Source: an uncultured Verrucomicrobiota bacterium (GTDB lineage: Bacteria > Verrucomicrobiota > Verrucomicrobiia > Limisphaerales > CAIQOK01). From it: a stretch of DNA of 64,000 nt. The notes beneath the pieces were generated by a model, which was not told the origin of the DNA, searched no databases, and worked only from the letters and a program-made list of their open reading frames with translations. The stretch's first letter is position 1. Each line of letters begins with the position of its first letter. The DNA lies in NCBI GenBank assembly GCA_903873415.1, contig CAIQOK010000163.1:11985-75984 (forward strand), written 5' to 3'. Made by a program: the position numbers and the translations under genes. Positions 537 to 20,738 of this stretch are shown piece by piece.

Positions 537-1976
537 ATGCTACACGATTACAAAAGGGAAATGTTTTTTGATGAAATGCTCGACGAGCGAGGTGCGGTGC
601 GGCCGCATTACGAGCAGTTCAGCCGCCTTTTTTCCTGCCTTTCCCCGGAGGAATTTGACAGCAAGCGCCAGGCTCTGGATCTGGCCTTTCTGCGCCAGGG
701 TGTGACTTTTAACGTCTATGGTGATTCTGCCGGGACGGAGAAGATTTTCCCGTTTGATCTTCTGCCGCGCATCATCCCGGCCAAGGAATGGGCCTTTCTG
801 GAACGTGGCTTGATTCAGCGCATCACGGCGCTGAATCTTTTTCTTCATGACATTTATCACGAGCAGAAAATCCTCAAGGACGGGGTGATTCCGCCATTTT
901 ATGTGTTGTCGGGAAGGCATTTCCGGCGGGAATTTGTGGGTTTCAACGTCCCGCGAGACATTTACATTCACATCTGCGGCACCGACCTGATTCGCGGTGC
1001 GGACGGCCAATACATGGTTTTGGAGGATAACGGCCGATGCCCCAGCGGTGTGAGCTACGTGTTGGAAAACCGGCGGGCCATGAAGCGCAGTTTCCCGGGC
1101 ATGTTTGAAGGGGTGGGTGTGCGGCCGGTGGAGGATTATCCCCGCGAGTTGCTGCGGATGCTCGAATACATCGCTCCGGCCGGGGTTTCCGATCCGACCG
1201 TGGTGCTGCTCACGCCCGGGCCTTACAACTCGGCGTATTTCGAGCACACCTACCTGGCCCGTCAGATGGGCATTGAAATTGTCGAGGGCCGGGATCTGGT
1301 CGTGCGCGATGCCCGGGTCTTTATGCGCACGACCAAAGGGCTCAAGGCCGTGCATGTCATTTACCGGCGGGTGGATGATGATTTTCTGGATCCCACGGTT
1401 TTCCGCCGTGACTCCATGCTCGGGGTGCCCGGTCTGGTCAATGCCTATCGTTCCGGCAATGTTTCCCTGAGCAACTCCATTGGCACCGGCATTGCCGACG
1501 ACAAAGTCATGTATTATTTCGTGCCGCGCATGATCAAGTATTATCTGGATCAGGAACCTCTCATCCCCAATGTGCCGACCTATCTGGCCAGCGAGGAGGC
1601 GGATCTGAAATACATCCTGGAAAATCTGGAGCGGTTGGTGGTCAAGGCCGCCAATGAATCCGGCGGTTACGGCATGCTGATGGGGCCCAAAGCGACCCGG
1701 GCTGAAATCGAGGCTTTCCGGGAGAAGATCATCGAGGATCCCCGCAATTATATCGCGCAGCCTATGATTTCCCTGTCGCGTCATCCGACCCACATTGAGG
1801 GGGGGGTGTTTGAAGGCCGGCACGTTGATTTAAGGCCTTACATCATTTACGGGGAGAAGACGGTCATAGTTCCGGGCGGACTGACCCGCGTTGCGCTGCG
1901 CAAGGGCTCGCTGGTGGTCAATTCTTCCCAGGGGGGTGGAAGCAAGGACACATGGGTTTTGTATGGGGATGAATAA
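537..1976 (+). CDS. Circularly permuted ATP-grasp protein (type 2; COG2308/DUF404-DUF407-like amidoligase)
   Basis: 479-aa ORF. The N-terminus ...[18 protein letters not shown]... and the blocks [57 protein letters not shown] and GGGSKDTWV are as I remember them for this family. An Alpha-E gene follows. Confidence 0.85.
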
Positions 1977-2050
1977 ATATTGTCGTGCCTGCGCAGGATC
2001 AACCGGTGACCGCAGGAGCCTGAGCGCAAAATCCGAAGCTTTGAAAAAAA

Positions 2051-3091
2051 ATGTTAAGCCGCGTTGCTAATTCGCTTTACTGGATGGCCCGCTATATCGA
2101 GCGTGCCGAGAACATCGCGCGGATTGTGGATGTGAACCTGCAATTGCTTTTGGACCTGCGCGATCTTGATGAGAAACGCGTGGCGGAGCATTGGCTGCCT
2201 ATTGTGCAGGCGACCGGCGACGAGGAGCAGTTTTTTCAGCGCCACGCCCAGGCCACCGCCCAAGCTGTGACGGAATTCCTAGTGTTTCAGCTGGAAAACC
2301 CTAATTCCATCGTCACCTCAATCTGTCAGGCACGGGAAAACGCCAGGATGGTGCGTGACCAAATCACCGTGGAATTGTGGGAGGAATTGAACCGGCTGTA
2401 TTGGTTTGTGCGCACGCCTCAGGCGCTGGCGGTTTGGAAGGAGAGCCCCAGCGACTTTTTTCAGCAGATCAAAGCCAGCTCGATGCAGATCATGGGGTTG
2501 ACCTATGCAACCCTCATTCGCAATGAGGGTTGGTGGTTCACCCAGGCGGGCAAGTTGATCGAGCGGGGGGACAAGACCTCTCGGATACTGGATTTACGGT
2601 TCCACACCTTGCCGGAGCGGGGGCTGCCTAAAAGTGTCAGCGAGACGGATGCCTTGGCCTGGTCAGCCATTCTGCGGTCATGCAGCGCTTGGGATGCCTA
2701 TAAATCCCTTCGCGGCGCGGAGGTTAACCCGCGTTTGGTTGCGGAATTCCTGCTGCTTAACGCGGATTTCCCCCGGTCCGTGAGGTTTTGTGTCAACGAA
2801 CTCAATCGGGCTCTGCGCCACATTTCCGGCGTGTCTGAGGGACGGTTTTGCAACGAGGCTGAAAAACTCGCCGGCCGTCTGGTGGCCGAGCTGCAGTTCA
2901 CCACCATTGAGGAGGTTTTTGATCAGGGCTTGCATATCTATCTGGACCAGTTGCAGGGAAAGTTCAACCGCATCGGCGATGCTTTGTTCCAAGCGTATAT
3001 TTTCCAGAAGTTCAGCAACATCGAGGACGAAATCATGGTCCAGCAGGAGGAACAGCAGCAACAGGAGCTGCGAAAAATCAGCTTGTTCTGA
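2051..3091 (+). CDS. Alpha-E domain protein (COG2307/DUF403-like), partner of the preceding ATP-grasp
   Basis: 346-aa ORF starting MLSRVANSLYWMARYIERAENIARIVDVN, the characteristic Alpha-E N-terminus. It lies 74 nt downstream of the ATP-grasp gene. Confidence 0.85.
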   Translation: MLSRVANSLYWMARYIERAENIARIVDVNLQLLLDLRDLDEKRVAEHWLPIVQATGDEEQFFQRHAQATAQAVTEFLVFQLENPNSIVTSICQARENARMVRDQITVELWEELNRLYWFVRTPQALAVWKESPSDFFQQIKASSMQIMGLTYATLIRNEGWWFTQAGKLIERGDKTSRILDLRFHTLPERGLPKSVSETDALAWSAILRSCSAWDAYKSLRGAEVNPRLVAEFLLLNADFPRSVRFCVNELNRALRHISGVSEGRFCNEAEKLAGRLVAELQFTTIEEVFDQGLHIYLDQLQGKFNRIGDALFQAYIFQKFSNIEDEIMVQQEEQQQQELRKISLF

Positions 3092-3120
3092 CTCCAACTG
3101 GTGCCACCTTTTAAACCAAC

Positions 3121-6100
3121 ATGCAGACCACTGTTACACCCCGTTCAGCCTTGGTTCCGGCCCATTTAAAAGCGTATATCAACATCAAGCTGGCGCTGCT
3201 GGGTTGCCAGGCCGTGCCATCGCAGGACAGCGAGGCATTCGCTGACATTATTTCGTCGTTGATTGCCCAGTGCAAGGAGAAGGAACGACTGTTGGCCAAT
3301 CACCTCTGCCCGGCCGACCGCCGTATCCAGTCGTTTCTCTACGACTATCTGCAGGAACTTCCGGTGGCTAAGCTCCCTCTTCAGACTTTCACGCTGGATC
3401 GGGAGGGGATGGCGCGCGTGCTCTCGCTGCCGGTGGACCGGGATGAATTTGTTTCGGACATTTGCAGTTCCTACCGTGTTGCGCAGGGTGTGCTCCATAA
3501 TCCCCGGAGTGATCGGCGCACGACGCAGGGCATTTTTCATATTGCGGAAGGCGGTCTGCCCATCCCGGCCGATAAAATCAGCGTGCCCAAGGCGGTCTTT
3601 GGCAGGATGCTGGGGTTTGCCCTCACTCCGCCCCGCTCTTTGCTGGGCCTGCCTTTCACCGCCACGCAGCCCCAAACAGCCGAGTGTTTTGTTTCGCTGC
3701 TGCTGCGTCCGGTGGTTTGTCCGGCGGTGCCGGGATTTACTCCCCAGAAAACCATGGAGATCCGGTTCTTTGCACCCGGAAATCTGGTGAGCAATCTGGA
3801 TTTCGTGGAAAGTATTTTCGGCAACGCCGGCGATCCTGGCCTTCCGGAAAACGACGCCGGACTGGATCCGGAGCACTGGAGCGGCCACACGGGCTGTGTC
3901 ATTCTTGCGCCCCATCTGACCGGGATCACCAAGAGGGATGGCGGGCTGCCGCATTGGGATGCCGCCACTGAGCGTCAGCGCCGCGACGGCATGTGCTGGC
4001 GCGACGAGGCCGAACTTTACAATGGCGGTCAGGCCTTCAAGCTCACCTGTCGCGACGAGTCGGGAGTGATAGTGACCCTGATTGCAGACAATTATTTCGG
4101 CTACTGCAAGAAGGAGGTCAAAACCCAGATCAGCTACGCTGCCAACCTCTTCGGATTATGCGAGGAGGAGCACGCAGGCGGGGCCCTGGTTTTCCCCGGT
4201 TACGACTTGGGCGAGGAATTCAGCGGCAATGTGCATGTCAAGCCGATGGGCCACTCGTATGCCGAGATGACCGAGCTCTTCGGCGAGCTTCTGACGCCGA
4301 TGCCGGAGGGGTTCGCGGTGGATAAAAAACACCCGGATATTATCTACGTGCCTGAGGACGCCCGCTTCGACCTGCACAAGCAGAGGGTGTTTTGGTCTGG
4401 CGCCGAATCGGAGCATTCCATCCGGCTGCAACCCGGGAACACTTATGTGCGCCCTTCGGGGTATCAGGTTCAAATGGAAAAGCCCGGACCCAATCGCGGG
4501 TGGCGTCTGGTGGGGGTGGCGGCCGAGGGCGCTTTTTGCCACAAACCCTGCACTGTTTCTGGCGGCGGCAAGTCGGAGATTTCCAAGCCGATCAGCGACG
4601 CCATTCTCACCGGCCCGGTTTTCATTGCCGACTTCAAAAAAGATTTCGACCAGGTCGCTCATCTTATTCAGCGCGATTATAGTGGCCGATTCAAGGATCC
4701 AGCCCGGACCGACACCCGGGCCATTTTGAGCGCAGAACGATCGCTGGGTTCTGTGATCAAGCTGCTCACCCCGGACGAGCGCGATTATCTGCCGGAGTAC
4801 AACGACTGGCTTGAGGCGGTGCCGCAATACCTCAAGGAACTGGTCTTTGTGGTTAAACGCTATTACAAGCCCGAGTGGGCCGGCGACTGGCGGGAGCATT
4901 TCAGTGTTGATATTATCAACGGCAAGCCCGCAAACGAACTGAAGTGTGATAATCGCAAGCTGGTGACCACCTGTCTGAGGGTCGGATTTGACACTGACGG
5001 ATCGTGGCGAACCTTCGGCTTGCGCAAGGATTTTTATCCCGCCGTCAAAATCCAGATGGAAGACGACATCACCGCCTCGGTGCTCGTGCCCCGGGACCGG
5101 CTCAAACACCTTTCGGACGAGGATTGCGCTCCGACCCTCAAGTTTGTTCAGAACTGCGAGCGGCGTTTGTTTCAGCGTCCGGATGACGCGATTCATCGCG
5201 GATATGACAAGCAGGCGGAGGCGGATTTTGCGCGTCCTGATAATTTCTTTTCGAATTACCAGCCGCTGAACCGGAACCAGGCTCGCGAACTGATGGATGA
5301 GGCGATTGGCTTCTATCAATTCACCGAGCCGATGCAGGCTTTGATCCGCCAAGTGGCCGAATCAACCTCTCCGGGTTTTCTCGTGTCTTCCGCGCATCCG
5401 CGGTTGGTGGAGGGCAAACCCAGTAAGAACCCCCGTTACCTGCAGACCCGGCCCGATCTGGTCCAGCCCCGGGCTAGTTATCTTGCCTCCATGTCGGCGC
5501 GCCTGCGCCGGCGTGTGCCCGTTGGTCAGCCCGTTTACACGCCGGTCACTGCTGTTCTCCCGGGGCGCCGTAATAATCCGGCCGAGCCGGGGATCCGTTC
5601 GTTGGCGGTTTTCAATCCCATTCATTATCTTGAACTGCCCGAGCTCTTTATGGAGTTCATTTGCAGCATGACGGGAAAGTCACCCTCAACCACCGGAGCG
5701 GGTTCCGAGGGGGCTTTGACCAAGGGGCCCTTCAATGCCTTGCCCCCTATCATTGATCTGAACAACGCCCTGGTTTCCTGGATTCTGACCGGGCACCATG
5801 GCTTTGTGACAGCCGCCGGCTGCGTGGGACCCAAGTTCCGCGTGGATCATGATGTCAGCCTTCTGGTGCCGGAAGTCTGGTGCCGCATGACGCCGGCCGA
5901 ACGCGACCCTGCGTTTCTCATCGCCAACCACTATCTGGATCGATGCGAGGATTATTTCCACGGGGGGAAACCTGTTTACGCCAGCCGTCTGGGCTATAGG
6001 ATCAACGCCCACTTCAGCCACGCGTTCTTCGGCCGTGTCTTCAACCATCCCCACGCCGTGTTTAGCGAGGAAATGCTCCGGCCGGAGCTGCAGGATCCCG

Positions 6101-6543
6101 AGGAGTTTGCCGATGGGGTTGACAATATCGTGGCCACGCAGCGGCGTGTCTCCGCGCTGTATTTTTCGGATGGCAGCATCAACCAAGCTTGTCCGCCTTT
6201 GCGGGCCCTGCTCCACATCATGCTTCATGATTCCTGGGAGGGGCGCTCAATCCAGCATCCCGAAGTGCGGAGCCTCTTTAGCCGGGAACAACTCATGGCC
6301 AGCGACTGGTATGCCGCCCGTCTGGCGGCGCGGCAGGAAATCGACCGGGCCCAGTGGAAAGGGCATGTCGAGTATCTTGAAAAATTCCTCAAGCGCGCCA
6401 GTCATGCCGAAGAAGCGGCACACCTCGGTCTGCCTGATCGATTGGTCCGAGCGCGGCATATGTTGGAAAAGACCTGGGCGGCAGACTATCTCCAAAACAT
6501 CGCCGGGACTTTGGGGGCGGAACCGGTTGGCTCCTATCTTTAA
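3121..6543 (+). CDS. Large (1140-aa) conserved-looking protein. Candidate PPi-dependent phosphoenolpyruvate carboxykinase (PPi-PEPCK-like); function not established
   Basis: Uninterrupted 3.4 kb ORF with gaps of 29 nt and 11 nt to its neighbours. PEPCK-like motifs occur in the canonical order: NPRSDRR (aa 127-133), YFGYCKKEVK (aa 325-334), EEH 20 residues after the KK pair (aa 349-351), and the P-loop-like SGGGKSE (aa 480-486, nt 4558-4578). The length matches the ~1100-1150-aa PPi-PEPCK class. The confidence value refers to the functional call; that this is a real CDS is about 0.9. Confidence 0.45.
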   Translation: MQTTVTPRSALVPAHLKAYINIKLALLGCQAVPSQDSEAFADIISSLIAQCKEKERLLANHLCPADRRIQSFLYDYLQELPVAKLPLQTFTLDREGMARVLSLPVDRDEFVSDICSSYRVAQGVLHNPRSDRRTTQGIFHIAEGGLPIPADKISVPKAVFGRMLGFALTPPRSLLGLPFTATQPQTAECFVSLLLRPVVCPAVPGFTPQKTMEIRFFAPGNLVSNLDFVESIFGNAGDPGLPENDAGLDPEHWSGHTGCVILAPHLTGITKRDGGLPHWDAATERQRRDGMCWRDEAELYNGGQAFKLTCRDESGVIVTLIADNYFGYCKKEVKTQISYAANLFGLCEEEHAGGALVFPGYDLGEEFSGNVHVKPMGHSYAEMTELFGELLTPMPEGFAVDKKHPDIIYVPEDARFDLHKQRVFWSGAESEHSIRLQPGNTYVRPSGYQVQMEKPGPNRGWRLVGVAAEGAFCHKPCTVSGGGKSEISKPISDAILTGPVFIADFKKDFDQVAHLIQRDYSGRFKDPARTDTRAILSAERSLGSVIKLLTPDERDYLPEYNDWLEAVPQYLKELVFVVKRYYKPEWAGDWREHFSVDIINGKPANELKCDNRKLVTTCLRVGFDTDGSWRTFGLRKDFYPAVKIQMEDDITASVLVPRDRLKHLSDEDCAPTLKFVQNCERRLFQRPDDAIHRGYDKQAEADFARPDNFFSNYQPLNRNQARELMDEAIGFYQFTEPMQALIRQVAESTSPGFLVSSAHPRLVEGKPSKNPRYLQTRPDLVQPRASYLASMSARLRRRVPVGQPVYTPVTAVLPGRRNNPAEPGIRSLAVFNPIHYLELPELFMEFICSMTGKSPSTTGAGSEGALTKGPFNALPPIIDLNNALVSWILTGHHGFVTAAGCVGPKFRVDHDVSLLVPEVWCRMTPAERDPAFLIANHYLDRCEDYFHGGKPVYASRLGYRINAHFSHAFFGRVFNHPHAVFSEEMLRPELQDPEEFADGVDNIVATQRRVSALYFSDGSINQACPPLRALLHIMLHDSWEGRSIQHPEVRSLFSREQLMASDWYAARLAARQEIDRAQWKGHVEYLEKFLKRASHAEEAAHLGLPDRLVRARHMLEKTWAADYLQNIAGTLGAEPVGSYL

Positions 6544-6554
6544 GTCAAGTAACC

Positions 6555-9500
6555 ATGTCCATTCACGTCGCGCTACATCACAAGACACATTACAAGTACG
6601 ACCGGCTTGTCACTCTCGGGCCCCAAGTTGTGCGCCTGCGTCCCGCTCCCCATTCGCGGACCCGGATCCTGAGTTATTCCCTGAAAATCCGGCCGGAAAA
6701 GCATTTTATCAACTGGCAGCAGGATCCCCAGTCGAACTATGCCGCGCGGCTGGTTTTCGAGCGGCCGACCCGCGAATTTCTGGTGGAAGTGGACTTGGTC
6801 GCGGAGATGGCGGTTCTCAACCCGTTCGATTTTTTCCTGGAGCCGCAGGCCCGGAAATTCCCTTTCGCCTACGACCCGGCGATGGACCACGAGCTGGCGC
6901 CTTTCCAGCGCAAATGCTGGCTCACTCCCCAGTTTGCGAAGTATCTCACCGTCTTGAGGCGCGATTTGATTGGCGAGTTGAAACGACGCACCAAGCAGCA
7001 GCGACTGGAGATGCCCGAGAGCGAAAAGCTGCCCACCAACGACTTCATCGTGGCCATCAATCAGCGGCTCTGGAAAGACATCCAATACACCATCCGGCTT
7101 GAACCCGGTGTTCAGGCGCCGGAAGAAACCCTCACCAGAATGAGCGGATCCTGCCGCGATTCGGCCTGGCTGCTCGTCCAGTTGTTACGCCATTTCGGCC
7201 TGGCTGCCCGCTTTGTCAGCGGATATCTGATCCAGCTCAAGGCGGATGTGAAATCGCTTGATGGTCCCAGTGGCGCGGAAAAGGATTTCACCGATCTTCA
7301 CGCCTGGACCGAGGTTTATCTGCCCGGAGCCGGGTGGATTGGTCTTGATCCCACCTCGGGCCTGCTGGCTGGTGAGGGGCATATTCCGCTGGCCTGCACG
7401 CCCGAGCCTTCCAGCGCCGCGCCCATCAGCGGAGGTGTGGATGAATGTGAAACCCAGTTCGGCTTCGACATGACCGTTGCGCGGGTGCATGAGTCTCCTC
7501 GTGTTACCAAGCCTTACACCGAGGAGCAGTGGGTGGAGATCGAGAAGCTTGGCCATGCGATTGACGCTGATCTGGTGCGGAATGACGTGCGGCTCACCAT
7601 GGGCGGCGAGCCCACTTTTGTTTCCTTGGACGATCCCGACGGTCCCGAGTGGAATTTCACCGCGATGTCGCGGCACAAGCGGATCCTTTCCGGGGAGCTG
7701 ATCCGCCGGCTTAGGAACAAGTTTGCTCCGGGGGCTTTGCTTCATTACGGGCAGGGCAAATGGTATCCGGGCGAACCTCTGCCGCGCTACGCCCTGGCCG
7801 CCTATTGGCGGAAGGACGGAGTTCCGGTCTGGAAAGATGAGTCGCTTATCGCTGACGAGTCCGAAAACTATGGTCACGGCCCGAAGGAGGCTAAGGAGCT
7901 GGCCTCCCGCATTGCGAAGAAGCTCGGTGCCGATTCCACCCATCTCATTCCGGCCTACGAAGATGCCTTCTATTACTCTTGGAAGGAGCGTCGGTTCCCC
8001 TCCAATGTTTCCCCGGAAAAATCGAACCTTAAGGACAGGCAGGAACGGGACCGGATTGCCAGAATTTTTCAACAGGGGCTTGGCTCGGTGGTGGGCTACA
8101 CCCTTCCTATCCAGCGTGTCAGGCAGGGGGGGCAAGATGGCTGGGTTTCGGGCCGGTGGTTTCTGCGCGATGACAACACGCTGTGGTTGATTCCCGGTGA
8201 TTCAGCAATGGGGCTGCGCCTGCCGCTTGATTCCATCCCATGGGTTTCAGAGAAAGAGTATCCTTGGGTGCGACAACAGGATCCTTCCCAGCCGGATCTC
8301 CCGCAGTTGCCCCGGGGGTTCCCCTACCGCACCAGCCCGGAATCAAGCGGTCAGCGGTTCCTCAGCGGTGCGCCGGCACCAAGGCCCCCGGGCTTCGGTC
8401 CCGGTCAAGCAGCCCGAAAACCCGCCGCGCCCGAAAACCAGTTTTCCAAGTTTGAGGCCGACCCCAACCGTTGTCCGGCACCGGGAGAGAGCGCGCCATG
8501 GATCATCCGCACCGCGTTGTGCGTGGAACCGCGCGAGGGAAGGCTTCACATCTTCATGCCGCCTGTGGAAAAGGCGGAGGATTATCTGGACCTCATCGCC
8601 GGGATCGAGGCGAGCGCTGCGGAGATCGGGTTGCCGGTGGTCATTGAGGGGGAAACCCCGCCCAAGGATCCGCGTCTGAACAAACTCGCCGTCACCCCCG
8701 ATCCGGGCGTCATCGAGGTGAACATGCATCCCAGCAAGTCCTGGGGTGAGTTGGTGGAGTGGACGACCGTGCTTTATGAGGAGGCGCGGCAGACGCGTTT
8801 GGGCACGGAGAAATTCATGGTGGATGGACGCCACACCGGCACCGGCGGAGGCAATCATATCATTATCGGAGGGGAAACTCCGGTCGACTCCCCTGTCTTG
8901 CGCCGGCCCGACCTGCTGCGCTCTCTGCTGACCTACTGGCAGAATCACCCCTCCTTGAGCTGGCTATTCAGCGGACTGTTTATCGGTCCGACTTCCCAAG
9001 CCCCGCGCATGGACGAGGCCCGCAATGATTCGCTTTACGAATTGGAGTTGGCTTTCAAGGAAATGGACAAGCAGGCCGGTGCCCAAGTGCCGCCGCCGCC
9101 CTGGCTGGTTGACCGTTTGTTCCGCAATCTGCTGGTGGACTCGAGCGGCAACACCCATCGCGCCGAGTTCAGCATCGACAAATTATTCGCGCCCGAGAGC
9201 AGCACCGGTCGTCTTGGCTTGGTGGAGATGAGGGCTTTTGAAATGCCCCCTGATGCCCGCATGAGTTTGGCGCAGCATCTTCTTCTGCGCGGCCTGGTTT
9301 CCAAGTTCTGGAAGGAACCCTACACCAACCGTTTGATCCGTTGGGGCAGCGCCATTCATGATCGATGGATGCTGCCGCATTTTTGCGAAACCGATTTCAC
9401 GGACGTGATCGAGGACCTGCGCAAATCCGGCTACGGGTTTGAGCGGAAATGGTTCGACCCTCATTTTGAATTCCGGTTTCCGCGGATCGGGGATCTGGCG

Positions 9501-10016
9501 CTGCGGGATTTGCACGTTGAGCTTCGCACGGCTTTGGAGCCCTGGCACGTTTTGGGGGAGGAGCCGGGCGGCGGCGGGACCGTGCGCTATGTGGACAGCT
9601 CCGTGGAACGGCTGCAGATCAAGGCCCGCGGTCTGGCGGATGACCGGTTTGCCATCACCTGCAACGGGCATCGGGTGCCTTTGCACCCCACCGGTGTTAA
9701 TGGAGAGGGTGTGGCCGGCGTTCGCTATCGTGCCTGGCAGCCGCCGGTCTGCCTGCAGCCCACCATCAAATCCCATGCCCCGCTGCGCTTTGATCTCTAC
9801 GACACGTGGAACGGGCGTTCGCTGGGCGGGTGCACCTACCATGTGGCGCATCCGGGGGGGCGCAGCTATGACTCTTTTCCCGTGAACAGTTATGAGGCGG
9901 AGAGCCGCAGGTTAGCCCGTTTTTTCCGGCATGGCCATCAGCAGGGCCGTTTTCAACCAACGCCTGAAATCCCCAATGCAGACTTTCCTTTCACTCTGGA
10001 TTTGCGCATTCTTTGA
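6555..10016 (+). CDS. Large transglutaminase-family protein (Bact_transglu_N + transglutaminase core + long DUF2126-like C-terminal region)
   Basis: 1153-aa ORF. The N-terminus MSIHVALHHKTHYKYDRLV...VVRLRPAPH is typical of the bacterial transglutaminase N-domain. The core reads GSCRDSAWLLVQLLRHFGLAARFVSGY...LHAWTEVYLPGAGWIGLDPTS, so the Cys/His/Asp context is intact. About 800 further residues follow, as in the ~1100-aa DUF2126 proteins. Confidence 0.85.
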   Translation: MSIHVALHHKTHYKYDRLVTLGPQVVRLRPAPHSRTRILSYSLKIRPEKHFINWQQDPQSNYAARLVFERPTREFLVEVDLVAEMAVLNPFDFFLEPQARKFPFAYDPAMDHELAPFQRKCWLTPQFAKYLTVLRRDLIGELKRRTKQQRLEMPESEKLPTNDFIVAINQRLWKDIQYTIRLEPGVQAPEETLTRMSGSCRDSAWLLVQLLRHFGLAARFVSGYLIQLKADVKSLDGPSGAEKDFTDLHAWTEVYLPGAGWIGLDPTSGLLAGEGHIPLACTPEPSSAAPISGGVDECETQFGFDMTVARVHESPRVTKPYTEEQWVEIEKLGHAIDADLVRNDVRLTMGGEPTFVSLDDPDGPEWNFTAMSRHKRILSGELIRRLRNKFAPGALLHYGQGKWYPGEPLPRYALAAYWRKDGVPVWKDESLIADESENYGHGPKEAKELASRIAKKLGADSTHLIPAYEDAFYYSWKERRFPSNVSPEKSNLKDRQERDRIARIFQQGLGSVVGYTLPIQRVRQGGQDGWVSGRWFLRDDNTLWLIPGDSAMGLRLPLDSIPWVSEKEYPWVRQQDPSQPDLPQLPRGFPYRTSPESSGQRFLSGAPAPRPPGFGPGQAARKPAAPENQFSKFEADPNRCPAPGESAPWIIRTALCVEPREGRLHIFMPPVEKAEDYLDLIAGIEASAAEIGLPVVIEGETPPKDPRLNKLAVTPDPGVIEVNMHPSKSWGELVEWTTVLYEEARQTRLGTEKFMVDGRHTGTGGGNHIIIGGETPVDSPVLRRPDLLRSLLTYWQNHPSLSWLFSGLFIGPTSQAPRMDEARNDSLYELELAFKEMDKQAGAQVPPPPWLVDRLFRNLLVDSSGNTHRAEFSIDKLFAPESSTGRLGLVEMRAFEMPPDARMSLAQHLLLRGLVSKFWKEPYTNRLIRWGSAIHDRWMLPHFCETDFTDVIEDLRKSGYGFERKWFDPHFEFRFPRIGDLALRDLHVELRTALEPWHVLGEEPGGGGTVRYVDSSVERLQIKARGLADDRFAITCNGHRVPLHPTGVNGEGVAGVRYRAWQPPVCLQPTIKSHAPLRFDLYDTWNGRSLGGCTYHVAHPGGRSYDSFPVNSYEAESRRLARFFRHGHQQGRFQPTPEIPNADFPFTLDLRIL

Positions 10017-10053
10017 ATCTGATAAGCAGACCGAATGATTTAATCCGTTCCCT

Positions 10054-12636
10054 ATGTTCCAGTCTCAAGCGCAATCCGCCTCGGACCAGAAGCGCGCCGT
10101 CCGCAAGGGGGCGCTTGGGGAAGCCGACTGGTTGTGCGGCTATCCGTCAGGGGCGTCGGCTTTCGACGAGTTTTTAGGGGGGCAACGCAAGCCCCGCCCG
10201 CATTACGCCGGTTTGTTTGATTCCTTGCAGGGGCTGGGAAGGGCCGAATTCAAACGCCGCCAGGAAACCTGCGGTCATCTCGTTCAGGAACAGGGCATCA
10301 CCTACAATGTTTATGGCGACCCTCGCGGCATGGAGCGGCCTTGGCAACTGGATCCGCTGCCGCTGGTCATCGCGCCGGACGAGTGGGCTTTGATCGAGGC
10401 GGGCCTGATCCAGCGCGCCATCCTCTTGAACAGGATCCTGGCGGATTGCTATGGGGCGCAGGAGTTGATCCGCTCGGGCTGGCTTTCACCGGCTTTGGTG
10501 TTTGCCCAGCCGGCGTTTCTGAGGCCCTGCCACGGCGTGCTTGTCCCCCGTGATCTCTTCCTCTATTTCTACGGTGCGGATCTGGCCCGTTCGCCCGATG
10601 GCCGCTGGTGGGTTGTCTCCGATCGCACCCAGATTCCGACCGGTGCCGGGTATGCCTTGGCCAACCGTTTGATCACCTCCAGGATTCTGCCCGAACCTTT
10701 CAGGGATCAGCGGGTGCGCCGGTTGGCCGGTTTCTTCCGGGACGCCCAATCAACCCTGAGCGATCTGGCAGACCGCCCGTCTTGCAAGGGGCGTGTGGTT
10801 ATTCTCACCCCCGGCCCGCATAACGAGACTTATTTCGAGCAGGCTTACCTGGCGCGTTATCTCGGATACATGTTGGTGGAGGGGCAGGATTTGACCGTGC
10901 GCGACAATGAGGTTTTTTTAAAGACCCTCGGCGGGTTGGAGCGGGTGGATGTGATTTTGCGCCGGGTGGACGATGATTTTTGCGATCCGTTGGAACTGCG
11001 CAATGATTCCATGCTCGGAGTGCCGGGTCTGGTCGAGGTGGTCCGCGCTGGCAATGTGGTTATGGCCAATGCCTTGGGTAGTGGCTTGGTGCAGAGCCCC
11101 GCCTTCATGCCTTTTCTTCCGGGGCTCTGCAAGCATCTTCTCGGGGAGGAATTGAAGCTGCCCTCGGTGGCAACCTGGTGGTGTGGTCAGCAAGCGGCCC
11201 AAAAGTATGTCTGCGAACACCTTGGCGAATTGAATGTGCGCCCCGCTTTTCCCGCCCGGCCTGCGGTGGCCGATACCGACCAACCCATGAGCGCGGCGGA
11301 GTGCGAGGATCTGCGCCGGCGGATTCAATTCGACCCGGATTTGTTTGTGGCTCAGGAACGGGTTGGTTTGTCCACTTCGCCGACTTGGGACGGCGCCGGG
11401 TTGACGGCCAGTCCGATCGGGTTGCGTGTTTTTCTCGCGGCAAGCGGCAGGGGCTATTCCGTGATGCCAGGAGGTTTGACGCGTGTTTCGCCCGAGGGCA
11501 GCGGGCGGGTTGTTTCCCTCCAACGCGGCGGTGCCAGCAAGGACACATGGGTCCTCAGTGAAACCCCCGTTGAGGAGGTTTCCTTGCTTCATCGTGCCGG
11601 GCAGACCATTGAGTTGAGGCGGACGGGAAACAATCTTCCTTCGCGTCTGGCGGACAATTTTTACTGGCTGGGCCGCTACGCCGAGCGGGCCGATGCCACG
11701 GGGCGTTTGTTGCGCAGCGCACTGAGGCGTTTCAATCCGGAGCGCACCGGCAGCGCCATGCCGCTGCTGGCGCCCCTGTTGAAAACATTGGAGGTTCAGG
11801 GACAGTTGCCCGGTGTGCTTGGGCGGCTTGATTTGAGGCAGAATCCCGAGGCGTTTGAGGCGGAGCTCCTCGCAGCCATCTTTGATCCCTCGCGCGGCGG
11901 GAGCCTCCACAATATCTGCAGCCATCTCCACCAGCTTGCCATGCATGTTCGCGACCGGACGTCCAACGACATGTGGCGTGTCATCAGCCAGATCAACCAA
12001 CGCCTGGCCACGCCGGCCAGCAGTCTGGCCATGCTCGCCGGGGATGCCACTCAGGTGCTTACGGAGACGCTTCTGGGCCTGTCGGCCTTTCAGGGATTGG
12101 CCCGTGAGAACATGACCCGCGCCCAAGCGTGGAGGTTTCTTGACATGGGTCTGCGCCTGGAGCGTGCGATTTATCTGTGCACCCTGTTGGATGCCACCCT
12201 GCTTTCGGATGAGGCGGAGGACCAGAGCGTGTTGGAGGCCGTGTTGGAGGTTGCCGACAGCTCCATCACCTATCGTTCCCGCTACAGTCTGCTGGCGCTG
12301 GTGCCGCCTGTGTTCGACCTGATATTGTTGGACGACAAGAACCCTCGATCCGTGCTCTTTCAGCTCCGCCAGTTCCTCAAACATATCGAAAAGCTTCCCG
12401 GGCAGCGCGAGGGGACTGCGGGCGCGGGGCGCACCCTGCTGCTGGCTTGCACCGCCCTCCTTGAACGAGCCGACGCCCGGGAACTGGCCCAGCCGCCGGA
12501 AAAGTGGCCCCGAAGCCAGGTCGCTTCCGCAATCAGGGCCACCTTGCATGCGTTGCCCGAGATTTCCAATACCCTTGCCGCCATCTACTTCGCGCATTCG
12601 ACCATCTCGCGCACCGGACGGGAGAACTCGCCGTGA
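10054..12636 (+). CDS. Fusion protein: circularly permuted ATP-grasp + Alpha-E domain
   Basis: 860-aa ORF. The N-terminal half is paralogous to 537-1976 (ILTPGPHNETYFEQAYLARYLG, RRVDDDFCDP, GVPGLVEVVRAGNVVMANALGSG, GGASKDTWVL). The C-terminal half carries the Alpha-E signature (RLADNFYWLGRYAERADATGRLLR). Confidence 0.85.
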   Translation: MFQSQAQSASDQKRAVRKGALGEADWLCGYPSGASAFDEFLGGQRKPRPHYAGLFDSLQGLGRAEFKRRQETCGHLVQEQGITYNVYGDPRGMERPWQLDPLPLVIAPDEWALIEAGLIQRAILLNRILADCYGAQELIRSGWLSPALVFAQPAFLRPCHGVLVPRDLFLYFYGADLARSPDGRWWVVSDRTQIPTGAGYALANRLITSRILPEPFRDQRVRRLAGFFRDAQSTLSDLADRPSCKGRVVILTPGPHNETYFEQAYLARYLGYMLVEGQDLTVRDNEVFLKTLGGLERVDVILRRVDDDFCDPLELRNDSMLGVPGLVEVVRAGNVVMANALGSGLVQSPAFMPFLPGLCKHLLGEELKLPSVATWWCGQQAAQKYVCEHLGELNVRPAFPARPAVADTDQPMSAAECEDLRRRIQFDPDLFVAQERVGLSTSPTWDGAGLTASPIGLRVFLAASGRGYSVMPGGLTRVSPEGSGRVVSLQRGGASKDTWVLSETPVEEVSLLHRAGQTIELRRTGNNLPSRLADNFYWLGRYAERADATGRLLRSALRRFNPERTGSAMPLLAPLLKTLEVQGQLPGVLGRLDLRQNPEAFEAELLAAIFDPSRGGSLHNICSHLHQLAMHVRDRTSNDMWRVISQINQRLATPASSLAMLAGDATQVLTETLLGLSAFQGLARENMTRAQAWRFLDMGLRLERAIYLCTLLDATLLSDEAEDQSVLEAVLEVADSSITYRSRYSLLALVPPVFDLILLDDKNPRSVLFQLRQFLKHIEKLPGQREGTAGAGRTLLLACTALLERADARELAQPPEKWPRSQVASAIRATLHALPEISNTLAAIYFAHSTISRTGRENSP

Positions 12637-13505
12637 ATTATCAGATCATCCACCGCACAACCTATGATTATTCAGCGCCGGTGACCGCTTCGCATCATGT
12701 GGCCCGGCTCAAGCCGGTGGATCATCCGGGCCAGGTCTGCGAGGTCTTTGAGCTGCAGATTTCCCCCGCCCCGGCCCGGCGGGCGGAGCGGACCGATTAC
12801 TTTGGCAACCGGCTTTGCTTCTTCAGTATTCAAGAGGCGCATCAGAGGCTTGAGATCACCTCCACCAGTCGTGTGAAGCTGCAAGCCGGCAGGATGCCGA
12901 TGCCGCGCTCCTCCGCCCCCTGGAAAACCGTGGCCGGGCTGTTCCGCGATCCTGTCTCTCCGGAAGCGGTGGATATTTATCAGTTTGTTTTTGATTCCCC
13001 CCATATCCGTTCATCCCCGGATCTGGCAGGCTACGCTGCCGTGAGCTTCCCGGCCGAGGGGTCTTTGCTGGCGGGTGCCCGCGATCTGACGCGCCGGATT
13101 TTCCAGGATTTTATTTACGATCCCCGGTCGACCACTGTGGCGACGCCGTTGGAGGAGGTGCTGGAAAAACGGCGGGGGGTTTGTCAGGATTTTGCGCATC
13201 TGGCTATTGGCTGTCTGCGGTCTCTGGGGCTTCCGGCCCGCTATGTCAGCGGGTATTTGCGGACCCGCCCGCCGGAAGGTCAGACGCGCTTGGTGGGGGC
13301 CGATGCCTCGCACGCCTGGTTCTCTGTATTTTGCCCTGGTGAGGGCTGGGTGGGTTTCGATCCAACCAACAACGTGCTGCCCCGCGAAGAACACATTCCT
13401 GTGGCGCACGGCCGCGATTTTGGCGATGTCAGTCCCGTGGCGGGAATCCTGACGGGGGGCGGTCTGCATACCGTGCAGGTGTCTGTGGATGTTTCAACTG
13501 TCTGA
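12633..13505 (+). CDS. Transglutaminase-family protein (Bact_transglu_N + Transglut_core)
   Basis: The GTG at 12633 overlaps the upstream stop (GTGA). The product begins VNYQIIHRTTYDYSAPV, the canonical family N-terminus. The core reads RRGVCQDFAHLAIGCLRSLGLPARYVSGY...SHAWFSVFCPGEGWVGFDPTN. The track ORF start at 12504 would overlap the upstream gene by 130 nt. Confidence 0.85.
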   Translation: MNYQIIHRTTYDYSAPVTASHHVARLKPVDHPGQVCEVFELQISPAPARRAERTDYFGNRLCFFSIQEAHQRLEITSTSRVKLQAGRMPMPRSSAPWKTVAGLFRDPVSPEAVDIYQFVFDSPHIRSSPDLAGYAAVSFPAEGSLLAGARDLTRRIFQDFIYDPRSTTVATPLEEVLEKRRGVCQDFAHLAIGCLRSLGLPARYVSGYLRTRPPEGQTRLVGADASHAWFSVFCPGEGWVGFDPTNNVLPREEHIPVAHGRDFGDVSPVAGILTGGGLHTVQVSVDVSTV

Positions 13506-13531
13506 GGTGGTCCAAATTAGTTCTTTTGCCT

Positions 13532-14362
13532 ATGAAATGGGAAATCATCCACCGCACCCGTTATGATTACGCATCCTTGGTGCGGGAAAGTTTCAACGAG
13601 GTCCGCTTGCAACCCTTCTCCGACGAGTGGCAGTCGGTGGACGATTTCCTGCTTAAAATATTGCCTGCTGCGCGCCTGCGGCATCATCACGATTTCTATT
13701 CCAACATTGTTCATTGCTTTGAAATAGCAGAGCCGCATCAGACACTTCTTGTGGAAAGTCGGTTGCGCGCCACGACCCGGTCGCAGCCGCCGATTCCGGA
13801 GCACGCCGAGACTTGGCCGCTGGCGCGGATGAGGGATGCGGCGTTGGCTCCTCGCGACTATGAGTTTCTGCAGGCGAGCCGGTTTGTGGAGTTGTCCCCG
13901 GAAGCGTGGCGGTTGGCGCTCGACGCCACGGTCGGGTTGACCGATGCCTGGCAGGCGGCTCTGGCAATTGTGCGATTTGTCCACGCCCGGTTCAAGTATG
14001 TGCCCAACTCCACCACCGTTCATACGCTCATGGGACAGGTGCTGCGGGAACGGCAGGGTGTCTGCCAGGATTTTGCCCATGTCACTTTGGGTTTGTGCCG
14101 CGCCTTGAAAATTCCGGCCCTGTATGTCAGCGGCTATCTGGCCACCGAAAATGCCAGTGCCACCCACGCCTGGGTCGAGGTCTTCATTCCGGGGCAGGGC
14201 TGGCGCGGTGTCGATCCGACTCACGGCCGGCAGGTTGACTCGACTTATCTTAAAATTGCCGTCGGTCGGGATTACGGGGACGTGCCGCCGGTGACCGGGC
14301 ACTACAAGGGCACTCTGGAGCGGAAGATGGAGGTTTCGGTGCAAATTCAGACCGGTGTTTAG
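13532..14362 (+). CDS. Transglutaminase-family protein (second small paralogue)
   Basis: From the ATG at 13532 the product reads MKWEIIHRTRYDYASLV. The core reads RQGVCQDFAHVTLGLCRALKIPALYVSGY...THAWVEVFIPGQGWRGVDPTH. The track start at 13526 is a TTG two codons upstream. Confidence 0.85.
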   Translation: MKWEIIHRTRYDYASLVRESFNEVRLQPFSDEWQSVDDFLLKILPAARLRHHHDFYSNIVHCFEIAEPHQTLLVESRLRATTRSQPPIPEHAETWPLARMRDAALAPRDYEFLQASRFVELSPEAWRLALDATVGLTDAWQAALAIVRFVHARFKYVPNSTTVHTLMGQVLRERQGVCQDFAHVTLGLCRALKIPALYVSGYLATENASATHAWVEVFIPGQGWRGVDPTHGRQVDSTYLKIAVGRDYGDVPPVTGHYKGTLERKMEVSVQIQTGV

Positions 14363-14432
14363 CCCGTCGATCGGAAGGCGTTGCCGGAGAACAATCGTTG
14401 AAAAAAAAACGGCTCTCGTTCATGTTCAGCGC

Positions 14433-15989
14433 ATGACAGATTTGGATCTAGTGAATGAACCTATGATTTGCCGTCTGGGCGAATCGCGCAAACCGGCCGA
14501 GCCCTGCTCCATCGTGATTTTTGGCGCTAGCGGCGATCTAACCGCGCGCAAGCTCATTCCCGCTCTTTACCACCTTTTCAAGGAAAAGCAGATGCCGGTC
14601 GCCTTCCGGGTGGTCGGATTTGCGCGCCGCGAGAAAACGGACGAATCCTGGCGTCAGGAATTGCGGATCGCCCTGGATCAGTTTTCGCGCACAAAGCCCG
14701 TGGACGAGACTGTCTGGCGGGAGTTTGCCGCCAACTTGGTCTATTGCCAGGGGGACCTCACTGACGCGGGGGCCTATCAAAAGCTGGAGTGTCTCTTGAC
14801 GGGGTTTGGTAGCGGGCCATTGCGTGAAAACCTCTTGTTTTATCTTGCCATTTCGCCCAGCCAGTTCGGCGAGGTCGTGGAGCATGTCCATCGCGCCGGC
14901 CTCTTGAACAAGGACGGAGCGGCCTGGCAGCGTATTGTCGTTGAGAAGCCTTTCGGCCACGATTTGAACTCGGCCCATGCGTTGAACAACGAACTGACCC
15001 GGTTTGCCCACGAACGTCAGGTGTTCCGGATTGACCATTACCTTGGCAAGGAGACGGTGCAGAACATTCTCATGTTCCGTTTCTCCAACTCCATATTTGA
15101 GCGCTTGTGGAATCGCGAATCGGTTGACCACGTCCAGATCACCGTCAGCGAAAAACTCGGCGTTGGGGGGCGCGGTGGGTATTACGAGGAGGCCGGCGCG
15201 CTGCGGGACATGGTTCAAAATCACATGTTGCAAGTGCTGGCCCTCATCACCATGGAACCGCCGGTGTCACTCGAGGCCGAAGCCATCCGGGATGAAAAAG
15301 TAAAACTGCTCAAATCAATCCGGCCGCTCCGCAGCGACGAGGTCCTGCGCCAAGTGGTCCGGGGCCAATACTTTGCGGGCATGGTGGGCGGCGAGTCCCG
15401 TCCGGGCTACCGTCAGGAAATCAAGGTCAGGCCTGATTCTCATGTTGAGACCTTTGTGGCTCTTAAATTGTTTATCGACAACTGGCGCTGGTCCGGCGTG
15501 CCCTTTTATTTGCGGACTGGCAAGAACCTTCCGATGAGCGCCAGCGAGGTGCGGATCCAGTTCCGTTCCACTCCGAACGTTCTGTTTGCGGCGCAGTGCG
15601 GGGAACGGCTCGATTCCAATGCGCTGACTTTGCGTCTTCAACCCAACGAAGGCATCTCTCTGCGCTTCAACGGAAAGGTTCCAGGCACGAGCTTGGCCGT
15701 GCGGCCGGTGCGCATGCACTTTAGTTACGATTCGGAATTCGGGGCCTACACCCCCGAGGCATACGAGCGGCTGCTCCTGGAGGCGATGGTCGGGGATGCC
15801 ACGCTCTTCATCCGCCGCGATGAGGTGGAAACCGCCTGGCAGATTGTGGATTCCATTCGCGCGGGGTGGGAGGGCAAGGCGCTGACAAACCGGGAGTTTT
15901 ATGCCGCCGGCACTTGGGGTCCGATTGCCGCCGAGGAGTTGCTGGCGCGAGCCGGGCACGCTTGGCACGAGCCCCAGGGCAGGAAGTGA
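14433..15989 (+). CDS. zwf: Glucose-6-phosphate 1-dehydrogenase
   Basis: Contains IVIFGASGDLTARKLIPALYHLF (NADP-binding motif), RIDHYLGKE (active-site motif) and VQNHMLQVL. The ATG at 14433 avoids overlap with the upstream gene, which ends at 14362. Confidence 0.93.
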   Translation: MTDLDLVNEPMICRLGESRKPAEPCSIVIFGASGDLTARKLIPALYHLFKEKQMPVAFRVVGFARREKTDESWRQELRIALDQFSRTKPVDETVWREFAANLVYCQGDLTDAGAYQKLECLLTGFGSGPLRENLLFYLAISPSQFGEVVEHVHRAGLLNKDGAAWQRIVVEKPFGHDLNSAHALNNELTRFAHERQVFRIDHYLGKETVQNILMFRFSNSIFERLWNRESVDHVQITVSEKLGVGGRGGYYEEAGALRDMVQNHMLQVLALITMEPPVSLEAEAIRDEKVKLLKSIRPLRSDEVLRQVVRGQYFAGMVGGESRPGYRQEIKVRPDSHVETFVALKLFIDNWRWSGVPFYLRTGKNLPMSASEVRIQFRSTPNVLFAAQCGERLDSNALTLRLQPNEGISLRFNGKVPGTSLAVRPVRMHFSYDSEFGAYTPEAYERLLLEAMVGDATLFIRRDEVETAWQIVDSIRAGWEGKALTNREFYAAGTWGPIAAEELLARAGHAWHEPQGRK

Positions 15990-16219
15990 GATTTCCAAGT
16001 GTCTCCCGGGACACCGGTGCTTCGGGTTCGTTAACAGATCCTTTGAAACGGCCCGTTTCTCTTGTCGTAGTCGGCAAAATAGAGGGTGTGGGGCGGCCCC
16101 GATTGCGTCTTCCCTGTCGGGGTGGCGGCCCGGCTGTTTTTTGAGATGCGGCTGGTGTAACGGCCGGGATCCGCCCCGGCAACTGGAAATGTTTATAGGC
16201 TTTCATCCCCAAGAAATGC

Positions 16220-16957
16220 ATGAGTGGAATTGAAATGGTTTCCTGTTCCAGCGACAATGATTTGGCTGCGCGGGCTTCCGAGGCGTGGATCAGTGAGATC
16301 GCACGAGCCAGTCGCGCAGGAAAGCCGCATTGCGTCGCCCTGTCTGGCGGCCGAATCGCCCGGAAGTTTTTCACCGCGACCGTACATCGCATTAGGACGG
16401 GGCGAATTGGCGGGGGCGACTCGGCGCGCTTGCTTGACCATGTGCATTTTTTCTGGGCGGATGAGCGGTGTGTTCCGCCGACGGATGGCGAGAGTAATTT
16501 CCGGATGGCCGACGAGTTGTTGTTCCGGCCGTTGGGGGTTTCCGCCGGCCGGATTCATCGCATCTGCGGGGAGGAATCGCCGGAGGTAGCCGCGGAAAAG
16601 GCGGCGGCGGAAATCTCCCGTATTGTTCCCCTTAAGGCAGCGGGGCAGCCCGCGCTGGATCTTATCTTGCTCGGTTTGGGGGAGGACGGTCATGTGGCCT
16701 CGCTTTTCCCCGGTGAATCCGAGGCGGTGGCGTCCGGTCCCGAGGTCTATCGTTCCGTTCATAATTCGCCCAAGCCCCCACTCAAGCGGGTGACGCTGGG
16801 TTATGCGGCGATTGCGGCCGCAGGGCAGGTCTGGATGCTCGCCTCTGGGGGTGGTAAAGCAGCCGCACTGGGCGATGCGGTGTCGCCTGCGGGGAATAAT
16901 CCTTTCGCCCGGGTCTTGAGGAGCCGCTCGGGAGTGACGGTTTTCAGGGACTTTTGA
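16220..16957 (+). CDS. pgl: 6-phosphogluconolactonase
   Basis: Contains VALSGGRIARKFF, FFWADERCVPPTDGESNF and DLILLGLGEDGHVASLFPG, which are typical Pgl/DevB motifs. It follows zwf. Confidence 0.88.
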   Translation: MSGIEMVSCSSDNDLAARASEAWISEIARASRAGKPHCVALSGGRIARKFFTATVHRIRTGRIGGGDSARLLDHVHFFWADERCVPPTDGESNFRMADELLFRPLGVSAGRIHRICGEESPEVAAEKAAAEISRIVPLKAAGQPALDLILLGLGEDGHVASLFPGESEAVASGPEVYRSVHNSPKPPLKRVTLGYAAIAAAGQVWMLASGGGKAAALGDAVSPAGNNPFARVLRSRSGVTVFRDF

Positions 16958-19467: not shown

Positions 19468-19616
19468 GGAACTCTCATCCTTTCCTTCACCCGCCAGATG
19501 AACCGAAAACAGCGATGCAAAAGGGCTCGTTGCCCCCGATCTTATTCACTTATCCATCCTTGATCACCACTTCAATTGCGAAGGTTAGGTTCATGGTCGG
19601 TCGGACGCCTGATCTG

Positions 19617-19655
19617 GGAAATAAAAAAGCGGCGGTCCGTTGCCGGACCGCCGCT
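19617..19655 (-). terminator. Rho-independent terminator of gap
   Basis: On the minus strand the sequence is agcggcggtccg-gcaa-cggaccgccgct followed by ttttttattt: a 12-bp perfect stem with a T-run, about 20 nt after the gap stop. Confidence 0.85.
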
Positions 19656-19673
19656 GCAAGCTTCAATTTGGGA

Positions 19674-20738
<1,065 letters not shown>

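Follow-up and report, generated by a model that had tools for sequence, protein, structure and literature searches.

Why does a gene for a central-carbon enzyme lie inside a cluster of ligase and peptidase genes? The question is raised by a 64,000-nucleotide stretch of DNA (the window) from an uncultured Verrucomicrobiota bacterium of the order Limisphaerales (assembly GCA_903873415.1, contig CAIQOK010000163.1, positions 11,985 to 75,984), in which an open reading frame (ORF) at 3121-6543 is wedged between the gene of an Alpha-E domain protein and that of a transglutaminase-like protein fused to DUF2126 (TG-DUF2126). A first-pass annotation of the letters alone had left two readings for this ORF: (a) an inorganic pyrophosphate (PPi)-dependent phosphoenolpyruvate (PEP) carboxykinase (PEPCK) embedded in an amidoligase/transglutaminase operon, or (b) a new accessory enzyme of that system with an altered function. 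Sequence similarity, fold and kept neighbours supported the former, while the latter was left without support. The explanation put forward here, which as a whole we regard as very probable, is that a PPi-PEPCK stands in a likely co-transcribed array, that its association with this array is conserved in a verrucomicrobial clade, and that the enzyme belongs to a co-regulated PPi-based carbon module.

Identity of the PEPCK gene

A phmmer search of PDB sequences matched the protein over nearly its whole length to the PPi-PEPCK of Actinomyces israelii (6K31; 1278 bits, E = 0, query residues 19-1135) and to the PPi-dependent PEPCK, or PEP carboxytransphosphorylase, of Propionibacterium freudenreichii (8E1U; 1258 bits, E = 0, query residues 15-1135). 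The full P. freudenreichii enzyme (P0121, a 'PPi-type phosphoenolpyruvate carboxykinase' at NCBI and UniRef) was 52% identical to the window protein by BLASTP (67% positives, 1131 residues aligned, 2% gaps). Both actinobacterial enzymes (1131-1153 aa) were 52-53% identical to the window protein end to end and had the invariant motifs HNPrxDRRTT, NYFGYcKKEVKTQ..EEEH and VSGGGKSEISK in common with it. An Entamoeba dispar homologue (P0243) was about 46% identical over the full length and fell into the same family in a 50%-identity cluster search; unlike the window gene it is eukaryotic and without operon context. The coding gene of the PPi-type PEPCK was first identified in E. histolytica (PMC10441589). 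The comparison with characterised PPi-PEPCKs that the first-pass annotation had called for was therefore positive, with the E. dispar homologue standing for the Entamoeba family.

When 1.84 billion cluster representatives were scanned exhaustively with HMMER, 776 matches fell below 1e-30, many of them fragments, which describes a compact family. Roughly 20 full-length representatives were found at 33-54% identity, the Entamoeba dispar protein among them, with lengths of 1121-1293 aa. The 1140 aa of the window protein fit this class, as had been argued from its size, and are roughly twice the length of the ATP- and GTP-PEPCKs. The exact window protein also occurred in two JGI metagenomes and one Logan assembly, and many homologues at 73-76% identity are named 'phosphoenolpyruvate carboxykinase (diphosphate)' by JGI. 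The copies of Pfam-A and NCBIfam that were scanned assigned the ORF to no family; the missing Pfam match is explained by the scanned Pfam copy, which predates PF26300 (PEPCK_PPi_lobe_2), a family precomputed for P0001, whose sequence matches the window protein at 100% identity. The protein is thus an additional member of an already known family, solved structurally and annotated in KEGG and JGI.

All four motifs that had been noted by eye were located at the claimed residue and nucleotide positions (Table 1), with YFGYCKKEVK at aa 325-334 (nt 4093-4122) and EEH at aa 349-351, so that H351 lies 20 residues past K331. An alignment of 17 diverse PPi-PEPCKs (33-54% identity) had 59 invariant columns, all present in the window protein by construction, and each of the four motifs contained such family-invariant residues, presumed to be catalytic, metal-binding and phosphate-binding. 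The earlier worry that the matches might be due to chance is fair for the short motifs taken alone and does not hold for the whole protein, given the full-length PDB matches at E = 0.

The tail ...GAEP(I/V)E(A/x)YL directly at the stop (window 6469-6543) was conserved in most verrucomicrobial PPi-PEPCKs, cluster-linked or not, among the C-termini of the related loci L001-L080 described below. The C-terminal ends of actinobacterial and gammaproteobacterial PPi-PEPCKs differed from it.

From similarity and the predicted fold together, the gene is judged with high confidence to encode a working PPi-PEPCK. By homology, the enzyme would run the reversible reaction oxaloacetate + PPi <-> PEP + CO2 + Pi, and we infer that it keeps this ordinary catalytic role.

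Predicted fold and relation to ATP-dependent PEPCK

An AlphaFold2 model of the window protein, built on 67 homologues, had a mean pLDDT of 85.4 and a pTM of 0.87. Foldseek against the PDB placed the model closest to the chains of 8E1U (TM 0.91-0.94, rmsd 2.4-3.3 A; best 8E1U_C with TM 0.94 and rmsd 2.4 A) and to 6K31 (TM 0.90). The only other significant matches were ATP-PEPCKs (ranks 11-28, E 2e-8 to 1.5e-5, target-normalised TM 0.53-0.62), comprising structures from E. coli, T. thermophilus, A. succiniciproducens and T. cruzi and one integrative PckA model. The PEPCK core that the first-pass annotation expected was therefore found in the predicted fold.

With E. coli PckA (1AQ2, 1AYL, 2PXZ) the model had a structural core in common (Foldseek E 2e-8 to 3e-7, PckA-normalised TM 0.56-0.61), as well as the same succession of an Arg motif, YxGxxKK, a His about 20 residues on and a Gly-rich Lys motif, which in PckA are GRSPKD at 64-69, YGGEMKKG at 207-214, H232 and GTGKT at 251-255. 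However, the window protein is twice as large, has about 110 additional residues separating the His from the P-loop-like motif, and shows no detectable sequence similarity to PckA, and the phosphoryl donor of ATP-PEPCK differs from that of the PPi-PEPCK family. Of the mapping to ATP-PEPCK proposed by eye, the order of the motifs and the Lys-to-His spacing agreed (20 residues vs 19 from K213 to H232 in PckA), while equivalence of the motif residues with R65, K212/K213, H232 and K254 of PckA was not demonstrable by profile methods, because a search of all PDB sequences with a profile of the 17 PPi-PEPCKs recovered 8E1U, 6K31 and two chance matches alone, with no ATP- or GTP-PEPCK, and hhalign of this profile with PckA gave a probability of 1.3% in a different register. 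The link between the PPi-PEPCK and ATP-PEPCK families is drawn solely from fold comparison, here with a predicted model. A passage of a review (PMC10441589, citing Chiba 2019) describes the homology of all PEPCK classes as supported by three-dimensional structures.

Linkage of PEPCK and the cluster among related loci

A scan of species-representative genomes found PEPCK homologues (64-75% identity) at 80 loci, mostly in metagenome-assembled genomes (MAGs) of Verrucomicrobiota (Limisphaerales, Pedosphaera and relatives), with some taxon labels evidently unreliable. Linkage was defined as a tblastn match of the window cluster proteins within 10 kb of PEPCK. By this definition, ATP-grasp, Alpha-E or TG-DUF2126 genes accompanied PEPCK in 44 of the 80 loci. 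Where each flank extended for at least 5 kb, the count was 30 of 47. Orthologues thus keep the neighbours that the first-pass annotation had suggested looking for. Several MAGs of this set that carry verrucomicrobial-type PEPCK and cluster genes were labelled as Bifidobacterium, Bifidobacteriaceae, Akkermansia muciniphila, Klebsiella and Acidobacteriota candidates (e.g. L001, L002, L013, L017 and L076), labels that look unreliable.

The linked loci showed at least five arrangements of PEPCK relative to the cluster (Table 1). TG-DUF2126 was the commonest gene directly downstream of PEPCK, and the apparent gap between the two, measured from tblastn hit ends, was often 6-41 nt. In L035, where PEPCK lies in a module of three genes, the stop codon of PEPCK and the start of the transglutaminase gene overlap. 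When the PEPCKs were set on a neighbour-joining tree, linked loci appeared throughout the verrucomicrobial clade, including a deep Pedosphaera-like branch, interleaved with unlinked ones, and among the 80 loci neither the tree nor the C-terminal tails held a feature separating linked from unlinked PEPCKs.

For the synteny control, all ORFs of the 80 loci were clustered, and the PEPCK, cluster and phosphofructokinase (PFK) genes and their antisense shadows were then set aside. The most frequent other flanking family was present in only 7 of the 80 loci; the recurring neighbours, sought for the unlinked loci and all of housekeeping or regulatory type (4-7 loci each, judged by eye), were glycosyltransferase-like, Mg-chelatase-like, ABC ATPase-like, sigma-54-type regulator-like and hybrid-kinase-like proteins. 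General synteny has therefore decayed while the adjacency of PEPCK and cluster has not. Within the verrucomicrobial clade the association is conserved, having been retained through repeated rearrangements, and it is universal neither to the enzyme family nor to the ligase/peptidase system.

Organisation of the cluster in the window

Gene calls were taken from identical JGI contigs, on one of which (L081) coordinates equal the window position plus 6880 (e.g. 12633..13505 = 19513-20385). All genes from 537 to 15989 were on the plus strand, with successive gaps of 74, 29, 11, 37, -4, 26 and about 70-100 nt. The gaps on either side of PEPCK were 29 nt (Alpha-E gene end at 3091) and 11 nt (TG-DUF2126 start at 6555), exactly as first noted. 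Terminator-like hairpins occurred at chance frequency (29 found vs 22.2 +/- 5.5 expected); none lay in the gaps of the array from 537 to 15989, and the first intergenic one was at 16116-16134, after the glucose-6-phosphate dehydrogenase (G6PD) gene and before pgl. GC content was even over the array (0.55-0.62). Since the same-strand gaps are tight and free of such hairpins and GC content is even, PEPCK is likely co-transcribed with the ATP-grasp, Alpha-E, TG-DUF2126, fusion and transglutaminase-like genes.

Table 1. Features of the window, and arrangements of PEPCK and cluster genes in related loci (TG, transglutaminase-like; CP, circularly permuted)
Feature	Position or loci	Strand	Remarks
CP ATP-grasp protein (module 1 ligase)	537..1976	+	First gene of array; CP_ATPgrasp_2 1.6e-165, CP_ATPgrasp_1 5.7e-150
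Alpha-E domain protein	2051..3091	+	Pfam Alpha-E 2.3e-96
PPi-dependent PEPCK gene (EC 4.1.1.38 family)	3121..6543	+	1140 aa, ATG start to stop
NPRSDRR motif	aa 127-133, nt 3499..3519	+	R133 invariant, followed by invariant T135 (17-sequence alignment)
YFGYCKKEVK...EEH block	aa 325-351, nt 4093..4173	+	Invariant Y325, G327, K330, K331, H351
SGGGKSE P-loop-like motif	aa 480-486, nt 4558..4578	+	Invariant S480, G481, G483, K484, E486
TG-like N-terminal domains fused to DUF2126 putative amidoligase	6555..10016	+	1153 aa; DUF2126 1313.9 bits, Bact_transglu_N, Transglut_core
CP ATP-grasp + Alpha-E fusion (module 2 ligase)	10054..12636	+	860 aa; CP_ATPgrasp_2 4.1e-147, Alpha-E 1.5e-65
TG-like protein	12633..13505	+	290 aa; Bact_transglu_N, Transglut_core; start overlaps previous stop by 4 nt (ATGA)
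Second, divergent TG-like protein	13532..14362	+	276 aa; Transglut_core 3.8e-21, Bact_transglu_N 6.5e-21
Glucose-6-phosphate dehydrogenase (zwf)	14463..15989	+	Pfam G6PD_N, G6PD_C; gene calls
6-phosphogluconolactonase (pgl)	16220-16957	+	
PPi-PFK gene	17418-18697	+	After zwf and pgl; split by apparent frameshift near 18020
Arrangement A: PEPCK inside cluster, as in window	e.g. L003, L013, L026, L038, L039, L048		
Arrangement A': as A, with 464-aa gene between Alpha-E and PEPCK	L002, L004, L014, L023, L025, L045, L058		
Arrangement B: PEPCK first, then TG-DUF2126, fusion gene, TG	L012, L028-L031, L049		
Arrangement C: unbroken cluster, then PEPCK	L001, L009, L011, L066-L072, L078		
Arrangement D: PEPCK divergent from cluster	L007, L018, L033, L036, L042, L044		
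PEPCK inserted in three-gene ATP-grasp/Alpha-E/small TG module	L035:7428-14351		No DUF2126 protein in module

The genes flanking PEPCK share the domain architectures of the known clusters of COG2308 (CP ATP-grasp), COG2307 (Alpha-E) and COG1305 (transglutaminase-like). Their order, together with the TG-DUF2126 and ATP-grasp-Alpha-E fusion proteins, presumably matches the cluster type of Iyer et al. 2009 and of M. tuberculosis annotation, in which we take Rv2409c-Rv2411c and Rv2566-Rv2569c to be clusters of this kind. Iyer et al. reportedly also considered peptide modification of proteins as a role.

Published descriptions place COG2308, COG2307 and COG1305 in one operon with Anbu and assign the cluster no function (PMC3235984, PMC5666114). 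The cluster is spread over cyanobacteria and alpha-, beta- and gammaproteobacteria (PMC3235984), a specific peptide-synthesis system was proposed for it by Iyer et al. 2009 as summarised in PMC5666114, and Anbu was upregulated in P. putida under nitrogen limitation (PMC5666114). The M. tuberculosis proteins Rv2411c and Rv2567 have been described as uncharacterised ATP-grasp proteins and made no GABA (gamma-aminobutyric acid)-trehalose, the sole synthesis tested, in crude E. coli lysates (bioRxiv 10.64898/2026.04.15.718621). Whereas the described clusters contain no central-carbon enzyme (PMC3235984, PMC5666114), the window has a PPi-PEPCK between the Alpha-E and transglutaminase genes, and some of its relatives have a PFK-family gene inserted there. 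Searches of the literature turned up no paper that connects PPi-PEPCK with the ATP-grasp/Alpha-E/transglutaminase cluster.

Between 537 and 18697, the annotated genes included none of Anbu type. G6PD was found near PEPCK in none of the 80 related loci, so its adjacency is specific to the window lineage. Before the window start on the same contig (L081:523-3112), upstream of the cluster and on the other strand, a Roadblock/LC7 protein, a small Ras/Arf-like GTPase and a large Robl-related protein were encoded, a group that looks like an MglA/MglB-like module.

PFK-family neighbours

The 464-aa gene ahead of PEPCK in the A' loci encodes a PFK-family protein (PF00365), with no NCBIfam model above cutoff. 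It combines GGDGT, as in ATP-PFKs, with PKTIDND, as in PPi-PFKs, giving a mixed ATP/PPi signature. About 16 loci have the PFK-family gene immediately upstream of PEPCK (e.g. L014:8610-10004 and, on the minus strand, L033:5833-7224), and in L033, L036 and L042 it fills the slot between Alpha-E and TG-DUF2126 that PEPCK holds in the window.

The window itself carries a PPi-PFK gene downstream of the array (Table 1). Its reading frame 0 runs to ...CCIIEVMG and continues in another frame from RAAGWIAAG, which may reflect either an assembly error or a pseudogene. When the frameshift was bridged, the 426-aa product was a full-length match to NF010675 (diphosphate--fructose-6-phosphate 1-phosphotransferase) at 514.5 bits vs a cutoff of 273. 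PPi-PFK and PPi-PEPCK use PPi in opposite directions in glycolysis and gluconeogenesis, and for this reason a PFK-PEPCK pair makes sense as a PPi-cycling module.

Explanations for the linkage

The proposed explanation is that PEPCK would be co-regulated with the cluster as part of a PPi-based central-carbon module, whose partners would be the neighbouring PFK-family gene in many relatives and the PPi-PFK in the window. Such a module may join PEP and the C4 (oxaloacetate/aspartate) pool at times when the amidoligase/peptidase genes are expressed.

Several observations weigh against this explanation. Linkage was absent in 17 of the 47 full-flank related loci, and from loci labelled Armatimonadota or Methylomirabilota; two loci labelled Abditibacteriota had at most one weak transglutaminase-like match, 1.3 kb from PEPCK (Abditibacterium locus L069). 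In Actinomycetota, neither of two genes examined was linked (the characterised P. freudenreichii gene and that of Propioniciclava), their neighbours being unrelated; unlike the window gene, these actinobacterial PPi-PEPCK genes have no ATP-grasp, Alpha-E or transglutaminase gene within 10 kb. The gammaproteobacterial sister clade (54% identity) likewise had no linkage in three genomes (Methylomonas methanica, a Methylococcales MAG and Sedimenticola). By co-occurrence, in 44 of 80 relatives and 0 of 5 genomes from other phyla, PEPCK does not behave as a core component of the CP-ATP-grasp/Alpha-E/transglutaminase system. As the linked loci all fall within one broad clade, the independent origins of the linkage may number just one. 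ATP-grasp and glutamine synthetase (GS)-like ligases release ADP + Pi, not PPi, so that PEPCK and the ligases have no obvious shared cofactor. The cluster is also well known without PEPCK, e.g. in Anbu operons (PMC3235984, PMC5666114).

Such observations would fit a real PPi-PEPCK whose position in the cluster is incidental, a lineage-specific relic of how genes were ordered in an ancestor that means nothing for function or regulation: only one clade shows the linkage, which is missing from the five Actinobacteria and Gammaproteobacteria examined and from the 17 full-flank relatives, and the cluster is widespread without PEPCK (PMC3235984, PMC5666114). We nevertheless think this somewhat unlikely, because the adjacency has outlasted at least five rearrangements (insertion, terminal and divergent placements among them) while every other flanking gene turned over, the commonest being kept in 7 of 80 loci; many loci have same-strand junctions of 6-41 nt, and a PFK-family gene can fill the same internal slot. 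The rearrangement pattern and the synteny control thus disfavour pure historical accident as the cause of the linkage, and with good confidence the adjacency of PEPCK and cluster is maintained by selection within the clade. In another alternative, PEPCK and the PFK-family enzyme would be direct partners of the system, either as substrates modified by the ATP-grasp/amidoligase proteins and demodified by the transglutaminase-like peptidases, or as suppliers or drains of oxaloacetate/aspartate for an amide-linked product. The conserved tight linkage, the placement of PEPCK or PFK between the Alpha-E and transglutaminase genes, and the peptide-synthesis proposal of Iyer et al. 2009, as summarised in PMC5666114, are in keeping with a direct partnership. 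It is nonetheless improbable in our judgement, as linked and unlinked PEPCKs interleave in the tree with like C-termini and no separating sequence feature, and Rv2411c and Rv2567, still described as uncharacterised, made no GABA-trehalose in crude lysates (bioRxiv 10.64898/2026.04.15.718621).

Far less credible still is a protein recruited as a new accessory enzyme with loss of PEP carboxykinase activity, as in the second reading of the first-pass annotation. The unusual location, and a protein left unnamed by the Pfam-A and NCBIfam scans, could be taken to point that way, but the absent Pfam match is a matter of library version, PF26300 being precomputed for the identical sequence. The 52-53% full-length identity to two solved PPi-PEPCKs, the TM of 0.94 to 8E1U, the presence (by construction) of all family-invariant columns, and the lack of a long branch or a separate subfamily relative to unlinked homologues all speak against a lost activity. 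Co-regulation of a PPi-dependent carbon module at the C3/C4 node with the cluster is the most economical reading of the adjacency.

Meaning for the cluster and its hosts

The enzyme itself is ordinary; the value of the finding lies in its gene context, the widespread ATP-grasp/Alpha-E/transglutaminase cluster. What is new is confined to the neighbourhood, where a conserved association, restricted to one lineage, ties PEPCK to an orphan system. It offers a useful lead and not a new kind of system. The occurrence of PPi-PEPCK and PPi-PFK in one 15-kb stretch supports the view that these freshwater and soil Verrucomicrobia use PPi-dependent central metabolism. A central-carbon enzyme that has stayed attached through many rearrangements hints at the condition in which the cluster operates, namely the C3/C4 node, the PPi economy and possibly nutrient limitation. 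The link between PEPCK and the cluster also points to tractable organisms and assays with which this idea can be tested. If PEPCK and PFK were its physiological partners in Verrucomicrobiota, they would provide the first concrete biochemical handle on a cluster that is kept across bacteria and has been uncharacterised since 2008-2009.

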